Below are positions 298 to 9,731 of a stretch of DNA of 9,731 bases, one piece after another. The DNA lies in the IMG/VR virus record IMGVR_UViG_2713896772_000022, one strand, 5' to 3'. The position numbers and the translations under genes were made by a program. Source of the stretch: a virus. Taxonomy: Duplodnaviria; Heunggongvirae; Uroviricota; Caudoviricetes. Under the pieces are notes generated by a model. The model was not told where the DNA came from and did not search any database. It saw only the letters and a program-made list of their open reading frames with translations. Each line of letters begins with the position of its first letter. Position 1 is the first letter of the stretch.

Positions 298-570
298 TCA
301 GACAGGAATTTGCTGACGGTTTGACAGCTTTGACGCGGAGCCATAGCGATTGAGAGTTTGCTGTTGTTTTTCCGGTATTTTTGCTTTGTCTGATTCCTGT
401 TCATTGCACCGAGGCTTCATAATTATCGTATCCACGCTTTCCAGTGCGGTAAATGTGCAGGAACATTCCAGATTCTGGCACTGATACCATGAGCGTTTAA
501 CCGACGGAGCTTCATAGGCGCTGGTTCTGGCGTGAGCGACCGCGCCACATTCAGGACACTTCAGGGCCAT
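298..570 (-). CDS. delta: Ogr/Delta-family zinc-finger late-gene transcriptional activator (90 aa)
   Basis: MALKCPECGAVAHARTSAYEAPSVKRSWYQCQNLECSCTFTALESV closely resembles P2 Ogr as I recall it (MFHCPLCQHAAHARTS...YHQCQNVNCSATF..ESV), with the C-x2-C...C-x4-C zinc motif. ATG at 570 chosen over the track start at 672 because the protein then starts at the conserved motif; GGAG lies ~10 nt upstream; ATG follows the psu stop (TGA 574-572) by one base. Confidence 0.85.
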   Translation of the reverse strand: MALKCPECGAVAHARTSAYEAPSVKRSWYQCQNLECSCTFTALESVDTIIMKPRCNEQESDKAKIPEKQQQTLNRYGSASKLSNRQQIPV

Positions 571-571
571 A

Positions 572-1126
572 TCAGCACACTCCTTTTTCATTAAGTCGGT
601 TAAGGCGGGCCAGGAAAACTTTATGTTGTGCCGGGGTGAAACTGGCTGAAGCATCAGCGCGCATTGATGCATCCACCGTTAATCCGGTTTCGTCGATAAT
701 GCTCTTATATGCTGCTGAAATTACCGGAGTACGCATTTCCGTTTGTCGGGCTACAGCGGTTCGTAATATTTTCATTGCCGCCTCAAGCCCGTATGGAGCG
801 CAAAGAAAAGGAGCCAGAGCGTCAGTGAGTGCATCACCATGCTCGCTCATGAAGTTTTCCGTTGCGCTTGTAACACAACTCTCCAGCACAATCTGATGAG
901 CATAAAGACCATCCCGTGCAGCACAGTTAATCTGCCATTCGAGGACTGCAAGACGCTCACGAAGATCCTCAAGCTGGCTGGCATATGCTGCCGGTTTTTC
1001 TTCAGTATCCAGCAGAGCCGCCAGACGAAGCTGGTAGGTACTTTGCGTATTACGTAGTGTCAGCCAGCTTTTTATCGCCGAGCGGTAATCGTTGAGTGCT
1101 TCCTGAGTAATGGTTCCGGCATTCAT
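572..1126 (-). CDS. psu: Polarity suppression protein Psu (184 aa)
   Basis: Segments FMSEHGDALTDALAPFL and ASFTPAQHKVFLAR match my recollection of P4 Psu (FMQQHGTALAAALAPEL; EKFTPAQNMIFSRK); length close to 190 aa. ATG at 1126-1124 overlaps the upstream stop TGA 1125-1123 (ATGA coupling). Confidence 0.85.
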   Translation of the reverse strand: MNAGTITQEALNDYRSAIKSWLTLRNTQSTYQLRLAALLDTEEKPAAYASQLEDLRERLAVLEWQINCAARDGLYAHQIVLESCVTSATENFMSEHGDALTDALAPFLCAPYGLEAAMKILRTAVARQTEMRTPVISAAYKSIIDETGLTVDASMRADASASFTPAQHKVFLARLNRLNEKGVC

Positions 1127-1875
1127 TTCTTCTCGCCCCCTTTAACCATGTCACGCTGTTTAAGCATCCGTGAACGCGCTGCAGGGCTGGGGGATTGTCT
1201 GGCATCCTGGATGGCTTTATCGTCCGCATAAATGCTGATCCCCGGCAGGGTAATATCATCGGTTGAAGATACGTTACAGGACAGTGCCGGAGTGGTGAGT
1301 TGCTCGCTGATAAATTGCTTCAGCACACTTTCGGGGTCGTTTACGGTATGAACTACACCGATAACAGCAGAAGCGCTTCGGCCCAGAGTCATTTTCAGCA
1401 GTCCAAGGATCTGAATAAGTTTCTGACCGTGTTCCTTCATAAACTCATTCCAGAGCCACACTGCATGAGTTTCAATCAGGCGATTATGTTCGCTGATGTA
1501 GTGGTTTGCAGCATCCGCAGTTTTCCAGGGCAGGAATTCATTTTCTGCCGCCTGAGCTGCCAGCAAATCTTCGAACTCATCCAGTGTTTCGCGTCCGAGG
1601 GCGATTTCTGCCCGCAGTTTTTTCATGCGTGGCGTCATATTTCCCTGATTCTCACGAAACAGGTTTCGCCATTCATCATTAAGCGCCTGCGTTTCCGTTT
1701 TTGTATCTTCCTGACGTTTACGGATAGTTTCAATCATTGCAGCAGCTTCAGTTTGTTTTCGTCGTTCTTCCTGCCAGACAGCTTTTGCTGCCTTAACTTT
1801 ATCCACCGCTTCGCGAATTTTCGGTGGGAGGGAGGGTGTAATGTTTGCATCAGGGATCTGGTTAACAGTAGTCAT
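1123..1875 (-). CDS. sid: Sid-like capsid size determination protein (putative, 250 aa)
   Basis: First gene of the late operon, immediately upstream of and coupled to psu; charged, helix-prone N-terminal half; size close to P4 Sid (244 aa). Track start at 1908 is TTG; the ATG at 1875 has GGAG 7 nt upstream. Assignment is by synteny and composition, not recognised motifs. Confidence 0.55.
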   Translation of the reverse strand: MTTVNQIPDANITPSLPPKIREAVDKVKAAKAVWQEERRKQTEAAAMIETIRKRQEDTKTETQALNDEWRNLFRENQGNMTPRMKKLRAEIALGRETLDEFEDLLAAQAAENEFLPWKTADAANHYISEHNRLIETHAVWLWNEFMKEHGQKLIQILGLLKMTLGRSASAVIGVVHTVNDPESVLKQFISEQLTTPALSCNVSSTDDITLPGISIYADDKAIQDARQSPSPAARSRMLKQRDMVKGGEKK

Positions 1876-1995
1876 GACTGCTCCGGTAGTGTTTTGTTGT
1901 TGTGTCAATTGTGCCGGGGTCCATACAAGCGCACTACCGAGGAGGATTGTGTCAGTGACTGAACAATGACCTTGTTCTGGCTAGCCAGAGAAAGG

Positions 1996-2789: not shown

Positions 2790-3050
2790 ATGAATAGTAT
2801 TTCCGTTTCCACCCCGGCACCAGCTGCTCCGGTGCTCCCGGTTCCGGCTCAGCAGGAGCGCTTCATACGATTACCTGAAGTGATGCACCTTTGCGGGCTA
2901 TCCCGTTCAACCATCTACGACCTTATCAGCCGCGATGCCTTCCCGCAGCAGATATCCCTGGGTGGAAAAAATGTGGCCTGGGTACAGTCGGAGGTCAGTG
3001 CATGGATGGCGGCGCGAATTGCTGCCCGCGAGCAAGGAGGCCATGCGTGA
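2790..3050 (+). CDS. AlpA/Vis-family phage transcriptional regulator (86 aa)
   Basis: [47 protein letters not shown] has the AlpA-family helix-turn-helix signature (LSRSTIY...FP..LGGR.V.W...E). ATG at 2790 with GAGAGG ~8 nt upstream; stop TGA 3048-3050. Confidence 0.85.
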
Positions 3051-3115: not shown

Positions 3116-3144
3116 TTTCCCGCTGCCGCAAAATCGGCTGCCGG

Positions 3145-3177
3145 GCGTAGGAACCCGAGTTACTTATTGGCGACACC
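3145..3177 (+). promoter_or_regulatory. seqA-like target sequence (GCGTAGGAAC ... TACTTATTGG)
   Basis: Blocks GTAGGAA and CTTATTGG are exactly complementary to TTCCTAC (3321-3327) and CCAATAAG (3306-3313) downstream; the same two blocks recur at 3352-3392. Confidence 0.4.
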
Positions 3178-3178
3178 A

Positions 3179-3200
3179 GACGCGCCGTGCGTCTTTTTTT
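3179..3200 (+). terminator. Hairpin GACGC-GCCGT-GCGTC followed by T7 (terminator-like; possible immunity terminator or RNA structure)
   Basis: 5-bp GC stem at 3179-3183 / 3189-3193 and a run of seven T at 3194-3200, immediately after the seqA-like element. Confidence 0.4.
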
Positions 3201-3239: not shown

Positions 3240-3340
3240 GCTTATACCTTAGCCCCTTTCAGATAATGGTGGTCCGGGCGGGGCAGCCTTCGGGCTGGCC
3301 GGTTTCCAATAAGGCCGGTATTCCTACCCCCGTTCGGGTC
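3240..3340 (+). ncRNA. Candidate CI-like immunity RNA containing a seqB-like segment (3303-3330); boundaries approximate
   Basis: GC-rich untranslated stretch with several short hairpins (e.g. GCC-TTCG-GGC; CCGG...CCGG) and a segment antisense to both seqA-like and seqC-like. No convincing ORF with a ribosome-binding site. Confidence 0.25.
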
Positions 3341-3351
3341 ACCACCCATGA

Positions 3352-3819: not shown

Positions 3820-4139
3820 AATCACGCACTCTTTCCCTTTCACTTCGGGTAGCGTTGTATCGCCGCGCGGTAGCCTGCGCCTGGTTGAGTGCCTGCTATC
3901 AGCAAAACCGCCATCTGCAGCTCACTCTGGATGAAATTGAAACCGCTATTGCCCGTGAGCTTGAAGGATTTTATCTGCGACAGCACGGGCAAACAAAAGG
4001 CATGGAAATCGCCTGCGCCCTGCTTTCAGACCTGATGGAATACGGCCCTCTAATGTCCTGTCCCGCACTCTCCCAGCTCGGAATAGCCGTAATGGATGAG
4101 TTATGCGTCCGTCACATCAAAAAGCCGGTTTTACACTGA
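3816..4139 (+). CDS. Hypothetical protein (107 aa), immediately upstream of the primase
   Basis: ATG at 3816 with GGAGGTGG upstream; translationally coupled to the previous gene; stop TGA 4137-4139 is 14 nt before the primase ATG. Confidence 0.6.
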
Positions 4140-4153
4140 GGGAGAACTGCGTC

Positions 4154-6487
4154 ATGTCAGGAATGAAAGTCAGTCAGGCCGTGAAGGCTGCCCGCGGTCA
4201 CTGGGCTCAGATTCTGCCAGCGCTGGGCGTGAATATATTGAAAAATCGCCATCAGCCTTGCCCGGTCTGTGGCGGTAAAGATCGTTTTCGCTTCGACGAT
4301 CAGGAAGGACGCGGAACATGGTTCTGCAATCAGTGCGGAGCCGGGGATGGTTTAGCGCTTGTCACCAGGGCACTGAATGTGGATATCAGTGAAGCAGCTG
4401 ACAGGATACATGGACTGACACATGATCTGTCTGTAGTTAATTCCGAGGTCAGGACGTTAACCGCCGATACCGATAGCGGGAAAGATGCAGCGGCAGCACT
4501 TGCCGCGCGACTGCTGCAAGCCTCGCGTGAATCTGCCGGAAACACTTATCTTACACATAAAGGTTTCCCGGAGCATATTTGCCATGAGCTGACTTCAGCT
4601 CATAAGGCCGGTGGTATGATGTTCCGCCCCGGTGATTTGATCGTCCCACTCTATAACGCTGACGGGGAGCTGGTGAATATTCAGCTCATCAGTGGCAATG
4701 GTAGCAAGTGTTTTCTTAAAGGAGGTCAGGTTAAGGAGGCCTATCATCTGATAGAAGGGGGCGGGAGTTCTGTAAGAAGGATTTGGATTGCGGAAGGTTA
4801 CGCCACGGCGCTTACCATTCATTATTTGACAGGAGAAGCCGTCATGGTGGCATTTTCGTCGGTCAACTTTCTTTCTCTGAGCAGCGTTGCCCATAATAAG
4901 TATCCGGGATATCAGTTAATTATTGCAGCGGACCGCGATCTGAATGGTTCAGGCCAGAACAGGGCTGAAACTGCTGCAAAAGCGAGTCAGTGTGACATTG
5001 TGCTGCCACCGGTTTTTGGTGACTGGAATGATGCGCTTACCCAATACGGAGAGGAATCCACCCGGAAGGCAATTCTTGAGGCTTTGAAGCCACATAACGC
5101 CAGTCCTTTCGACACAATGAGTGAAGCAGAATTCACAGCGATGAGTGTCAGCGAAAAAGCTCAGAGGGTTCGGGAGCATTACAGGGATGCACTGGCGGTT
5201 GATCCGAACGGGCAGCTTTTATCCCGCTACGAGTCTGGAGCGTGGAAAGTTATTTCTCAGTCAGATTTTGCCCGAGATGTCGCAGCCCTTTTCCAGCGCC
5301 TCGGGGCACCGTTTTCCTCAGGAAAAATTGCCTCACTGGTGGAAACATTAAAGTTAATTGTTCCGCAGCAGCAAAATCCGTCACGTCATCTGATTGGTTT
5401 TCGTAATGGCGTTCTCGATACGCGAACAGGGCTTTTTAGTCCGCACTGTAAAGAGAACTGGCTGCGTACCCTGTGTGAAGTCGATTTCACGCCACCGGTA
5501 AAGGGGGAAACGCTTGAAACTCATGCCCCGGCATTCTGGCGTTGGCTGGACCGGGCCGCCGGACACAAGCCAGCAAAACGCGACATTATTCTTGCAGCGT
5601 TATTTATGGTGCTGGCGAACCGCTATGACTGGCAGCTCTTTCTGGAAGTGACTGGCCCTGGTGGAAGTGGCAAAAGTATTCTGGCTGAAATTGCGACCAT
5701 GCTTGCTGGAGAGGATAACGCCACCTCTGCGACCATTGAAACGCTGGAGTCCTCGCGAGAACGTGCGGCTCTGATAGGTTTTTCTCTTATTCGCCTGCCT
5801 GATCAGGAGAAGTGGAGCGGCGACGGCGCCGGGCTTAAGGCTATAACTGGTGGCGATGCAGTATCTGTGGACCCCAAATATCAGAATGCTTATTCAACAC
5901 ATATTCCGGCGGTTATCTTGGCCGTAAATAATAATCCTATGCGCTTCACTGATCGCAGTGGTGGTGTGTCCCGCAGGAGAGTTATTCTGCATTTTCCTGA
6001 GCAGATAGCACCGGAAGAACGCGATCCGCAGTTGAAAGATAAAATTGCACGAGAACTGGCTGTGATTGTTCGTCAGCTCATGCAGCGTTTCAGCGATCCG
6101 ATGAGCGCCAGAACATTGCTTCAGTCGCAGCAGAATTCTGATGAGGCTCTCACCATCAAGCGTGATGCTGATCCAGCATTTGATTTTTGTGGCTACCTTG
6201 AGGCATTACCTGACACCAACGGTATGTTTATGGGGAACGCCAATATTGTCCCACGCCAGCCACGTACATACCTTTACCATGCCTACCTCGTATACATGGA
6301 GGCTAATGGCTATAAAAACACCCTGAGTCTTACGATGTTTGGCAAAGGGTTGCCAGTCATGCTGAAGGAGTACGGGCTACATTATGAGAAACGGCGAACT
6401 AATCAGGGAATGCAAACTAACCTCACTTTGAAAGAGGAGAGTAATGCAGACTGGCTGCCCAAGTGTGATGAGCCAATATTAAAATAA
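4154..6487 (+). CDS. alpha: P4 alpha-type bifunctional DNA primase/helicase (777 aa)
   Basis: N-terminal zinc ribbon CPVCGGKDRFRFDD...CNQCG; Toprim-like IAEGYATALT and AADRD; Walker A VTGPGGSGKS of a D5/SF3-type helicase. ATG at 4154 has GAGGGAG 9 nt upstream and gives 777 aa, the length I recall for P4 alpha; the track start at 4103 is an alternative. Confidence 0.92.
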   Translation: MSGMKVSQAVKAARGHWAQILPALGVNILKNRHQPCPVCGGKDRFRFDDQEGRGTWFCNQCGAGDGLALVTRALNVDISEAADRIHGLTHDLSVVNSEVRTLTADTDSGKDAAAALAARLLQASRESAGNTYLTHKGFPEHICHELTSAHKAGGMMFRPGDLIVPLYNADGELVNIQLISGNGSKCFLKGGQVKEAYHLIEGGGSSVRRIWIAEGYATALTIHYLTGEAVMVAFSSVNFLSLSSVAHNKYPGYQLIIAADRDLNGSGQNRAETAAKASQCDIVLPPVFGDWNDALTQYGEESTRKAILEALKPHNASPFDTMSEAEFTAMSVSEKAQRVREHYRDALAVDPNGQLLSRYESGAWKVISQSDFARDVAALFQRLGAPFSSGKIASLVETLKLIVPQQQNPSRHLIGFRNGVLDTRTGLFSPHCKENWLRTLCEVDFTPPVKGETLETHAPAFWRWLDRAAGHKPAKRDIILAALFMVLANRYDWQLFLEVTGPGGSGKSILAEIATMLAGEDNATSATIETLESSRERAALIGFSLIRLPDQEKWSGDGAGLKAITGGDAVSVDPKYQNAYSTHIPAVILAVNNNPMRFTDRSGGVSRRRVILHFPEQIAPEERDPQLKDKIARELAVIVRQLMQRFSDPMSARTLLQSQQNSDEALTIKRDADPAFDFCGYLEALPDTNGMFMGNANIVPRQPRTYLYHAYLVYMEANGYKNTLSLTMFGKGLPVMLKEYGLHYEKRRTNQGMQTNLTLKEESNADWLPKCDEPILK

Positions 6488-6575: not shown

Positions 6576-6837
6576 CGTAAGCAATTGATATATAAGTTAA
6601 AAATGGCAGGGTGAATAGTGTGCATGGTTTTGCGAAAAAAAAGTATTTTTTGTAGAGTCAAGTCCCGGTTTGGATCCGTTTAACGGAACCTAACTAGATT
6701 GACTATTTCTCTGATGATTTTTGGATAAATAATCAACAAAAATCAAAATGTGAACAGAGAATGGTGGGGGCACAAAAAGGGGCATAATTGAATTAATTAT
6801 AATTAAATTTCAATTTTTACAATAGGTTAAATGTGTG

Positions 6838-6859
6838 TGCGAGTCCGGCCTTCGCACCA
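6838..6859 (+). other. att core-like sequence (partial tRNA 3' end ...GAGTCCGGCCTTCGCACCA); putative attR and satellite boundary
   Basis: TGCGAGTCCGGCCTTCGCACCA resembles the T-loop/acceptor 3' end of tRNA-Leu leuX and the P4 attP core as I recall them, with one missing G. No complete tRNA lies upstream (AT-rich), so it is a partial copy. The coding character changes downstream. Confidence 0.5.
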
Positions 6860-7392
6860 AGTTACTAAATTCCTTACAATACAGTTAGTTAGACGATTAA
6901 ATCTGTCTCTTTTGCCTGTAAGAAATGCTCTGTTATGTCCCTTGAAAAAGCCGCTGTGGTTGATAGTGGTAATTGGGATGTTAACTCATAGCGGCGTGTC
7001 GTTCCAAGCGTCAAACACGTACTGACTCAACTTGAAAGCTATGACGTAGCCACCGTCTCTAAACAATCCCAAAACTTTTAGTGCAGCGCATTTTAGCCCG
7101 ATGCCCCCATTCTGTCGCCGTCGCGAGACGCCGCAGGGGATAAACAGGTTTATGGTGGTCACGGTACTTGCAGACCATATGCAAGCTCTGCCAGCGGTTC
7201 GGCCTCGCTCCCCTTGGGTACATGGTCATCCTGATAAGCCTCACTAACTGACATAACCCTGATGAAGTCGCAAGAGGCTCCGCTTGTTGTCTTACCACCA
7301 ACGGGGCTTTATGGATTCTATTGCTTAATATATGATTGTATCAAACTTAGACTGCATAATTTAAACGAACATAACAATCAGGCAGGGGAAGA

Positions 7393-8217
7393 ATGATAAA
7401 GCCATTTTCTGTGAGGTATGGTCATGTTGACGTTAGAGAGCATGTCCAGCTGAATGATCTTAATTCTGATACACGCATGGCATTGTGGAATTGCTTATAT
7501 CTTTTCCTTTGGACTAACAATCGTCAAACTGCTACAGCAACAAAATGTGCGCAGTCTGTGTGGATATATTATCTAAATCAACCTGCGGATAATATTCCTC
7601 GTTATGAAAGTGGATACAAAAGTGATAAGACGTTGCTGACTGCTATCCGAGATTATATATATGGGGAAGCATGGTATTTGGTATATGATTTAATTGAGTT
7701 CATCATTGAGAGAACTAATTCATATATTAATCTATCGAAGCATCTCAATTCCATCTTTAAAAAGCATGGCGTTGGTTATACCATAATAAATGGTTGTATT
7801 ACTCCTATTTCAAATGATAACGAAATTGAAAGTGTTCAGAACGCAGTTGATAATGGCACTGATTCATCGCGTAGCCATTTCGAAAGGGCGTTACAACTAA
7901 TGACGGATAGAGAGCAGCCAGACTACAGAAACTCGATTAAAGAGTCTATCTCTGCAATTGAATCTTTATGCAGGAAAATCACGGGCAATGATAAAGGAAC
8001 CTTGGGGGCTTGTCTTAAAGCTATAGAGGAAAAAGGATATATACACTCTGCAATGAAAGGCGCTTTTAGTCAGCTCTATGGTTATACAAGTGATCAGGGT
8101 GGAATACGTCATGCGCTAACAGAAGAAGATGTAAATCCTACCTTAGCTGAAGCTAAATTTATGTTAGTCACTTGCAGTGCGTTCAGTAATTATCTGTTGT
8201 CAAAAATAAGTGATTAA
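7393..8217 (+). CDS. Hypothetical protein (274 aa), low-GC cargo; function unknown
   Basis: ATG at 7393 with GGGGAAG upstream; long uninterrupted ORF with AT-rich codon usage unlike the satellite core; stop TAA 8215-8217 followed by a strong hairpin. No motif I can assign with confidence. Confidence 0.75.
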   Translation: MIKPFSVRYGHVDVREHVQLNDLNSDTRMALWNCLYLFLWTNNRQTATATKCAQSVWIYYLNQPADNIPRYESGYKSDKTLLTAIRDYIYGEAWYLVYDLIEFIIERTNSYINLSKHLNSIFKKHGVGYTIINGCITPISNDNEIESVQNAVDNGTDSSRSHFERALQLMTDREQPDYRNSIKESISAIESLCRKITGNDKGTLGACLKAIEEKGYIHSAMKGAFSQLYGYTSDQGGIRHALTEEDVNPTLAEAKFMLVTCSAFSNYLLSKISD

Positions 8218-8235
8218 TTACAGGTTTATAGTTAC

Positions 8236-8256
8236 GAGTGGGTTAGTTACCCACTC
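8236..8256. terminator. Hairpin between convergent genes (GAGTGGGT-TAGTT-ACCCACTC), likely bidirectional terminator
   Basis: Perfect 8-bp stem at 8236-8243 / 8249-8256, between the stop codons at 8215-8217 (plus) and 8266-8268 (minus). Confidence 0.5.
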
Positions 8257-8265
8257 CCTTTAAAA

Positions 8266-8838
8266 TTATTCACCAGACTCTAATCTTTTTTCTCTTTTCT
8301 CATCTCTCCTTTTTATTGCCAAATCGTGTTGCTCTTGCAGATACGTGCGTTCTTCGTTTCTATCGCTTGAAGTATATACGTCTGCTTTTACTTTTTTAGC
8401 TCCTTGTGCAATAGGTTTCCAATCCTCTCTTATACCTTTAATTTGTTCTGCAATTTGCGTCAATGGGCTTCTCGCTCCTAGATAACTTATTCCTTCAAAT
8501 GTCGCCATGTCATACACATATTCATTTGTTTCTCTATCGTTTGATTTAGGTTTGCTTGCCCAGCTTATATTAATATTATAAATTTGATCTTTGATTTGTT
8601 CATACTTACAGAGATTGCTGGTAAGTGATTGCCCATTTTTTAACACGCTTACCTTACTAAACGGAATCTCACTTTTTTCTCTATGCTCCGCATTTACTAG
8701 TGGAGGATCAAACACAACCTCAACATTATAGGCAGGTGCGTTCCCTGTATTAGCAATGTTAATATCAAAGTAAAAAGCGGCCCAAGGGTTTGGCTCAAGT
8801 GTTACAACTATATGGGGTTGAGCTGATGCGTCAACCAT
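8266..8838 (-). CDS. Hypothetical protein (~190 aa), low-GC cargo; 5' end abuts the IS911 terminus
   Basis: The track ORF (208 aa) starts at GTG 8892, inside the IS-end sequence. The first ATG is at 8838 (MVDASAQPHIVV...) with only a weak Shine-Dalgarno. N-terminal half looks beta-rich, C-terminal tail highly charged (KRRDEKREKRLE). Confidence 0.6.
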   Translation of the reverse strand: MVDASAQPHIVVTLEPNPWAAFYFDINIANTGNAPAYNVEVVFDPPLVNAEHREKSEIPFSKVSVLKNGQSLTSNLCKYEQIKDQIYNINISWASKPKSNDRETNEYVYDMATFEGISYLGARSPLTQIAEQIKGIREDWKPIAQGAKKVKADVYTSSDRNEERTYLQEQHDLAIKRRDEKREKRLESGE

Positions 8839-8938
8839 TCTTTTTGTCTCGTCTGCTCTGAAGTGGTGAAGTGGTTTACTGAATTTGGCCACCTGAACAG
8901 AGGTGATATGCTCACCTCAGAACAACACAGGTGCTCCA

Positions 8939-9731
<793 letters not shown>

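Follow-up and report, generated by a model that had tools for sequence, protein, structure and literature searches.

What are the two convergent, low-GC genes that lie between the attachment (att) core of a P4-like satellite and an insertion sequence (IS) in the Caudoviricetes record IMGVR_UViG_2713896772_000022, and might either of them act in defence against phages? The window, by which we mean the whole 9,731-nucleotide (nt) stretch of DNA analysed, holds an Escherichia coli P4-like satellite and, beyond the satellite primase gene, open reading frame (ORF) A (7393–8217, plus strand, 274 amino acids, aa) and ORF B (open frame 8266–8892, minus strand, 208 aa from a GTG; called in RefSeq as 8266–8838, 190 aa). 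The original prediction, made from the letters alone, held that both proteins match no nameable family and are candidate uncharacterised defence or abortive-infection cargo. Here, we find that both have families: ORF A is an AbiJ_NTD4 + HEPN protein catalogued in PADLOC as PDC-S32, of a type described in 2013, and ORF B, as judged from its alignment with homologues, is the 5′-truncated remnant of a phage cargo gene of family phrog_11802. We hold these identities, and the anatomy of the two ORFs, with high confidence. For the locus as a whole, the explanation we favour, with a good deal less assurance, is an older cargo slot at the leuX tRNA gene that carries a candidate abortive-infection effector (ORF A) next to a dead remnant (ORF B).

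The family of ORF A is defined by profile matches along nearly its entire length. Residues 4–153 (7402–7851, plus strand) match the Pfam family AbiJ_NTD4 (PF18863) with a score of 95.5 bits (cut-off 34; E 5.8e-27; profile positions 2–151 of 152), and all 33 aligned homologues match the same family. PADLOC, a check that had been proposed along with the original prediction, has no model for ORF B and matches ORF A over its full length: residues 3–272 align with positions 8–281 of the 285 in PDLC04997, the PDC-S32 model (E 5.6e-104), and a second model, PDLC04996, follows (E 1e-86). RefSeq names the protein 'AbiJ-NTD4 domain-containing protein' (WP_000594911.1). Thus the architecture, the catalogue entry and the annotation of this exact protein are all already known. 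In PADLOC, PDC entries are phage defence candidates only.

Homologues of ORF A are numerous, with 4437 clusters found by a word-indexed search. When its C-terminal domain was used as a phmmer query against 1.84 billion representatives, 4073 clusters at 50% identity were returned (E ≤ 0.001); nearly all were NTD4-HEPN proteins, and no bridge to a HEPN family with the canonical motif appeared among them. NTD4 was present in the same layout in 8 of 10 sampled matches, a sample made up mostly of proteins of unusual length or layout. The ratio of nonsynonymous to synonymous substitution rates (dN/dS) is 0.09–0.12 for ORF A, calculated against two orthologues, and 0.05–0.11 for ORF B, which has 91 homologue clusters. 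The existence of homologues and the low dN/dS values indicate that ORF A and ORF B are real genes rather than chance ORFs, and we read ORF A as intact and kept by selection. Some relatives of ORF A have other layouts. One 539-aa NTD4-HEPN protein (P0256) has a C-terminal methyladenine-glycosylase-like region, a 529-aa protein (P0338) carries a 200-aa N-terminal extension, and a 219-aa protein (P0240) consists of two tandem HEPN domains without NTD4.

At the level of sequence, the HEPN signal in ORF A is faint. DUF4145 is matched below threshold in 9 of the 33 homologues. Abi_C (PF14355) gives no match on ORF A at E up to 1, a sub-threshold match on homologue P0236 (E 0.018, 15.6 bits, cut-off 24), and precomputed matches on homologues P0013 and P0028. 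NCBIfam yields sub-threshold matches alone for either ORF; the one between ORF A and the CBY_0614 exemplar family has an E of 0.0063 and 15.8 bits (cut-off 150). Sequence searches of the PDB with full-length and C-terminal profiles returned chance matches (E 0.14 or worse), so a fold search was needed. In the AlphaFold2 (AF2) model of ORF A (predicted local distance difference test score, pLDDT, 81), NTD4 is an alpha+beta domain with pLDDT 80–94 from about residue 21, and residues 1–17 fall below 50. The C-terminal domain (approximately residues 157–273; 7861–8211, plus strand) fits the four-helix up-and-down bundle of HEPN proteins, with an insert between helix 2 (178–197) and helix 3 (219–233); helix 4 spans 251–273. 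As modelled, then, ORF A is a HEPN fold with a non-canonical motif.

That motif is centred on the R-H dyad which the original prediction had picked out as off the canonical Rx4-6H spacing, and the alignment bears this out. R239-H240 (8107–8112, plus strand) is invariant in the 33 aligned homologues and closes the motif LYGYTSDxGGIRH (L228–H240), a stretch situated exactly at the junction of helices 3 and 4. His240 occupies the HEPN catalytic position, and the invariant Arg is adjacent to it, not 4–6 residues upstream. Also invariant are D234 and, in helix 2, R179, N180, E184 and E190. HEPN domains have a conserved acidic residue in helix 2, often within Ex3[KR]; for some families, variants of the active site have been documented (PMC3710099). 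ORF A has such a residue in E190-x3-R194, and position 194 is R or K in most enterobacterial homologues. In two remote relatives, the HEPN-only protein gp056 of Rhizobium phage RHEph01 and the tandem-HEPN protein P0240, GxRH (as GVRH) and the helix-2 glutamates are kept; R179 and N180 are not. At the other end of ORF A (residues 1–17, 7393–7443), F5, S6 and G10 are invariant and R8 is nearly so; Q19, just past this segment, is invariant too. The conserved N-terminus could be a flexible peptide with a regulatory or interaction role.

What might such a protein do? AbiJ-NTD4 was defined in 2013 as an N-terminal domain fused to an AbiJ-type HEPN domain, with the proposal that N-terminal domains of this kind detect components of the phage and hold a suicidal HEPN RNase in check (Anantharaman et al., PMC3710099). 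By analogy with that work, NTD4 is presumed to be a sensor or regulatory domain here. ORF A would then be an abortive-infection system in a single polypeptide: NTD4 would keep the HEPN domain inactive until a phage component is sensed, and the released HEPN domain would cleave RNA, halting growth of the infected cell. His240 and the adjacent Arg239 may stand in for Rx4-6H, aided by the invariant acidic residues of helix 2. On balance, we lean towards ORF A being a candidate abortive-infection RNase of this sort, with NTD4 as sensor or inhibitor and HEPN as effector. No conserved co-directional small ORF adjoins ORF A as an antitoxin candidate, there are no ToxI-like or tandem repeats upstream or downstream of it, and Rfam gives no match at 6780–7420. 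ORF A thus lacks the marks of a type II or type III toxin-antitoxin module, and we count the absence of an antitoxin gene or repeat array in favour of the single-protein reading.

It is also possible, in our estimate unlikely, that ORF A has no anti-phage role, being instead either a non-catalytic HEPN protein, like MtlR and the nucleotidyltransferase-associated HEPNs, or a toxin for addiction to, or stabilisation of, its island. Precedent exists in HEPN families that lack the motif and are known as non-nucleases or users of other mechanisms (PMC3710099), and ORF A itself has no canonical Rx4-6H, matches to two HEPN sequence families, DUF4145 and Abi_C, that stay below threshold, and a family for which no experimental study was found. 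Yet the invariant R239-H240, in the loop between helices 3 and 4, and the helix-2 Glu sit at the positions of HEPN catalytic residues, and the R-H motif survives in very distant relatives. The genomic contexts likewise argue against this alternative, in that they are mobile-element cargo and defence-candidate neighbourhoods rather than metabolic operons. Homologues are the first cargo gene after the integrase in Klebsiella and Enterobacter islands, one adjoins AbiEii in a metagenome contig (L017), and another lies beside the integrase of a temperate Curtobacterium phage; in other E. coli, the slot that ORF A fills here precedes a resolvase gene and the gene of a PDC-S60-like DUF4062 protein. 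Finally, PADLOC lists the family among phage defence candidates.

Comparison with described systems places ORF A nearest to the AbiJ-NTD4 + HEPN proteins (PF18863, STM4504/CBY_0614, PDC-S32), with which it shares the two-domain layout, a length of about 275 aa, the HEPN fold, and contexts in islands or as phage morons. It is distant from the CBY_0614 exemplar, however, and its motif is YGYTSDxGGIRH, not Rx4-6H. AbiJ of Lactococcus lactis, at about 280 aa, is also a single-protein system, and its C-terminal domain is predicted to have a HEPN fold; the abortive-infection mode of ORF A is proposed by analogy with it. Unlike ORF A, it has an N-terminal domain of a different type, and Abi_C is undetected on ORF A. 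Among other defence toxins with a HEPN RNase, those of the AbiA, RnlA/LsoA and MNT-HEPN types have separate antitoxins, and AbiV has an RNA antitoxin. ORF A differs from AbiV, AbiA's C-terminal domain, RnlA/LsoA and MNT-HEPN, all with canonical or documented alternative sites, in having no antitoxin gene or repeat array adjoining.

Several points weigh against reading ORF A as an abortive-infection RNase. Rx4-6H is absent, the residues 4–6 before H240 being D234, Q235 and G236, and nuclease activity is therefore not assured. Neither Pfam Abi_C nor the PADLOC AbiJ models reach threshold on ORF A. AbiJ of L. lactis is itself without a known mechanism, and its escape mutants lie in single-stranded-DNA-annealing proteins (PMC13064643). 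Our literature searches found no mention of PDC-S32, the defining 2013 paper alone for AbiJ-NTD4 (PMC3710099), and no experimental work on the ORF A family. Should ORF A nonetheless be active, a single-gene HEPN defence, as yet unvalidated, would be present at leuX in about one of every twelve sequenced E. coli, among them the type strain ATCC 11775 and the O26:H11 enterohaemorrhagic lineage, with possible consequences for phage typing and phage therapy. Activity would also provide the first functional data for AbiJ-NTD4/PDC-S32, a family of more than 4000 clusters at 50% identity, and the non-canonical R-H motif would widen the definition of the HEPN active site.

ORF B is a gene of another kind. 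It belongs to no Pfam, PADLOC or NCBIfam family, and a full-length homologue matches phrog_11802 (E 1.3e-115). Over residues 13–193 it is 71% identical to ORF1 of P2-EC53 (AJ512682), the 'putative lysogenic conversion protein' of the Z region, and to a gene of phage R18C that lies between tail-fibre genes and the sheath gene. In a viral collection, 17 of the 21 loci with an ORF B homologue place it beside P2 tail genes (gpG-like and/or sheath); ORF A is found at just one of the 21, which is the E. coli locus analysed here in another copy. The fun(Z) gene of P2, which encodes a different protein at the same site as the ORF B family, blocks phage T5. ORF B is homologous to Z/fun-site cargo such as P2-EC53 ORF1, yet lies in a chromosomal leuX island and is without its first 38 residues.

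The extent of this loss is clear from the homologues. Full-length members of the family have 225–250 aa and a conserved hydrophobic N-terminal segment (…ISAFAALLTAVATFFLWRVT…), a transmembrane (TM) segment that is present in all of them and missing from the window copy. Alignment with 25 full-length homologues equates the window copy to residues 39–234 of a family of about 230 aa, and tblastn with an Enterobacter homologue (P0160) places residues 39–234 at 8856–8269, with 79.6% identity. What remains is codons 39–234 and the stop (8266–8856, minus strand); start codon, TM helix and promoter are gone, and the left end of an IS911-type element of the IS3 family (8859–9731, plus strand) forms the breakpoint. 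Residues 1–38 are found neither in the window nor in the 16-kb flank of ATCC 11775 (L001) or the 9-kb flank of O26:H11 (L012). The E. coli entries are all 190–220 aa, and many are flagged as partial. In O26:H11 11368 (L012, 10067–11924), IS600 splits the remnant again; ORF A is intact and identical there. The protein of about 190 aa named in the original prediction thus comes from a real gene, though not a complete one. From the sequence, ORF B is a 5′-truncated remnant from which the IS has removed the N-terminal TM helix, and its function in this window is most likely lost.

As for the intact family, in a full-length AF2 model (pLDDT 82.5) an N-terminal helix covers the TM segment and is followed by a beta-sandwich of seven strands and by two helices at the C-terminus; fold searches with it return generic Ig-like matches alone. 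Basic residues follow the TM segment, which by the positive-inside rule suggests that the soluble part is cytoplasmic. Members of the family are membrane-anchored proteins in which a single N-terminal TM helix precedes an Ig-like beta-sandwich, with further helices at the C-terminus; in P2-like phages, the gene is the lone cargo of the Z/fun lysogenic-conversion site. In the P2-EC53 Z-region record (L003), annotated inverted repeats (3–115 and 1983–2073) flank the ORF B homologue, which suggests that the cassette is mobile. Nothing in the window matches these repeats, and a literature search for P2-EC53 found nothing.

Could the truncated ORF B still be expressed, as a soluble protein of about 190–208 aa with a retained or new function? 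We regard this as the least probable of the alternatives considered here. The 208-codon open frame extends into the IS end, RefSeq annotates a 190-aa coding sequence, and translation could start either at an internal Met at 8838 or inside the IS; this last point counts against declaring the gene dead. Of the 478 genomes with a copy of the fragment, moreover, 477 have it at 99% identity or more, and in 441 it is at least 80% complete. Such near-identity is, however, attributable to recent common descent and not to selection, and the conserved TM anchor and the native upstream region have both been lost. On the same strand, the sole promoter-like site in the neighbourhood of the 5′ end is found downstream of the ATG that is annotated, and the O26 lineage has suffered further disruption by IS600. 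For annotation, the '190-aa hypothetical protein' that appears in hundreds of genome records represents a truncated piece of a P2-type accessory gene and should be flagged as a pseudogene.

Do ORF A and ORF B nevertheless belong together? The arrangement seen here recurs with a full-length B in two other loci. Enterobacter roggenkampii (L018) has tRNA-Leu(caa), A (93.8% aa identity), the intergenic hairpin, full-length B and a resolvase gene in this order, and in the metagenome contig (L017) AbiEii, A (78%) and a 231-aa B are followed by a resolvase gene. Over the whole block 6836–8857, which runs from the att core up to the breakpoint at the IS, the window is colinear with both, at 81–90% identity including non-coding DNA. 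The three loci with A and B are therefore a single islet in orthologous copies and amount to one observation. Elsewhere the genes occur apart. A is found without B in Klebsiella, Enterobacter chengduensis-type, Xanthomonas and Curtobacterium phage loci, and B without A in P2-like phages, K. michiganensis, Pectobacterium and Mesorhizobium; the Pectobacterium homologue of B lies two genes from an AAA_15/AAA_21 ATPase gene. We conclude that ORF A and ORF B are separable single-gene modules in one slot, in agreement with the suggestion that they might be independent.

The opposing view, that A and B form one convergent two-component system in which the membrane protein partners the HEPN protein and of which the E. 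coli copy has decayed, strikes us as very unlikely. That A-hairpin-B recurs with an intact B, that the two travel as one block in all three loci (E. coli, E. roggenkampii and the metagenome contig) and that they jointly fill one replaceable slot between conserved flanks does speak for partnership, and the shared travel leaves a small probability of a functional link; but these loci are a single observation, and A without B, like B without A (in 17 or more P2-like prophages), is found at many others. Convergent genes are not co-transcribed. Moreover, ORF A is intact and at least 99% identical in 468 of 469 carrier E. coli genomes, even though B is truncated in every copy seen. A possible parallel comes from RHEph01, where the HEPN-only A homologue gp056 (hhalign probability 99.7%) and gp054, which encodes a TM protein, converge on each other and are separated only by a small ORF, gp055. 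Profile comparison nevertheless reveals no sequence relationship between gp054 and the ORF B family (hhalign probability 2.6%). In this phage record (L044), gp056 and gp054 occupy 454–951 and 1246–2121. In BFVD, the structural match ranked fifth for the model of ORF B (E 3.6e-4) comes from the same phage and has the same length as gp054, 291 aa; it is very probably gp054.

How did two separable modules come to lie here? The key lies in the short att core at 6837–6860 (plus strand), which consists of the last 24 nt of the tRNA-Leu(CAA) gene leuX and bounds the P4-like satellite on the right; no full tRNA is detected by ARAGORN anywhere in the window. Positions 6837–9201 are 99.9% identical to E. 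coli ATCC 11775 (L001, 15637–18002), and the alignment begins within the tRNA-Leu gene of that strain (15576–15660), which identifies 6837–6860 as the duplicated 3′ end of leuX and the attR core of the satellite. In E. roggenkampii, the same block likewise begins within tRNA-Leu(caa). With the att core in this position, ORF A and ORF B are both outside the satellite, and ORF A starts 533 nt past the core, after the primase end of the satellite. The GC content of the pair is 0.35–0.40, against 0.49–0.56 in the satellite body. Both the placement of two convergent, low-GC genes with a shared hairpin between att core and IS and their description as accessory cargo at a tRNA hotspot, outside attR and beside an IS, thus agree with what had been predicted.

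ATCC 11775 carries the pair at leuX without the satellite. Occurrence as core genes in satellite-free genomes had been raised as a difficulty for the cargo idea; the pair does occur without a satellite, but it is no core component. Among 5426 complete E. coli genomes, ORF A is present in 469 and the ORF B fragment in 478, in every case on the chromosome, and at about 8.6% of genomes the pair is therefore accessory. IS fragments and the fec operon come after the pair both in ATCC 11775 and in O26:H11 11368. The ORF pair is part of an older leuX island that predates the satellite. The satellite would have inserted later at leuX, between the tRNA gene and the cargo slot, and the IS911-type element would have cut into the far side of this tRNA-proximal slot. 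The locus is, in short, an unexceptional accessory islet rather than a system of a novel type.

The left flank of the slot is of some interest in its own right. The non-coding segment 6861–7324, between the att core and the variable cargo of the leuX island, is 96.5–99% identical in the metagenome contig, in E. roggenkampii and in two E. coli with other cargo (L047 and L048). In each comparison, the homology stops at one and the same base, 7324 (left junction …GGATTCTATTGC). It occurs in 630 of the 5426 E. coli genomes, more than carry ORF A, and it is near-invariant beside an ORF A with synonymous divergence (dS) of 0.24–1.26. Rfam has no match to it (E up to 1), its fold z-score is +0.33 on both strands, and indels break its ORFs. 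As a separate matter, the 533 nt between att core and ORF A were considered as a remnant of an integrase of the Klebsiella/Enterobacter type; tblastn found nothing. On the other side of the slot, a 44-nt right flank (5908–5951 in L018) precedes a serine-recombinase gene and is common to the A+B version and versions with other cargo. In L047 (5462–7084) and L048, a 304-aa protein without a family fills the slot instead of A+B, followed by a resolvase gene and then a DUF4062 protein, the N-terminal 160 residues of which match PADLOC PDC-S60, in the N-terminal part of that model.

One could read these features as an undescribed cassette-exchange hotspot marked by the leuX pair: a slot of about 1.7 kb with a fixed junction, in which single-gene defence candidates are swapped. 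Its brackets would be the 464-nt left flank, the short right flank and the serine-recombinase gene, and cassettes of the B type would be shared with P2 Z/fun. We are doubtful of both the hotspot itself and this account of its parts. Searches for repeats flanking the cassettes in L017, L018 and L047 gave short, chance-level matches alone. In a stronger form of the same view, the HEPN and membrane proteins may be functional partners, as the adjacency of gp056 and gp054 in RHEph01 hints. Variable defence-type cargo between conserved flanks is a feature that the leuX slot shares with the described E. coli hotspots in or near P4/P2-type elements, which are bounded by psu and int in P4 and by gpA and gpQ in P2 (Rousset et al. 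2022, PMC9122126). The pair does not fall within the P4 psu-int hotspot, however, as it lies beyond attR, in a separate leuX slot next to a serine-recombinase gene, and is also found in satellite-free genomes.

The remaining features of the window are the following. A distance of 48 nt separates the stop codons of ORF A and ORF B, and the space between them holds a hairpin common to both genes (GAGTGGGT-TAGTT-ACCCACTC, 8236–8256; 8-bp stem, 5-nt loop; −19.3 kcal/mol, z-score −4.4). Its stem is identical in the metagenome contig and in E. roggenkampii, and the loop differs in the former. The hairpin departs from the terminator consensus because no T-run follows it; a bidirectional terminator is its probable role. 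On the satellite side are ogr/delta-like, psu and sid-like genes (298–1908, minus strand), an AlpA-type regulator gene (2790–3050) and the primase gene (4103–6487). Two RNAs of the satellite regulatory region score above the Rfam gathering threshold, isrK (3122–3199, 72.1 bits) and the C4 antisense RNA (3262–3349, 83.4 bits). At the opposite end, RefSeq annotates transposase fragments in the IS3-family element from about 8859, which we take to be IS911 from its OrfA sequence. At its junction with the truncated ORF B (8859–8875), the IS911-type terminal octamer TGAAGTGG occurs twice in tandem (8859–8874), a repeat that Tandem Repeats Finder (TRF) reports as two copies of 8 nt.

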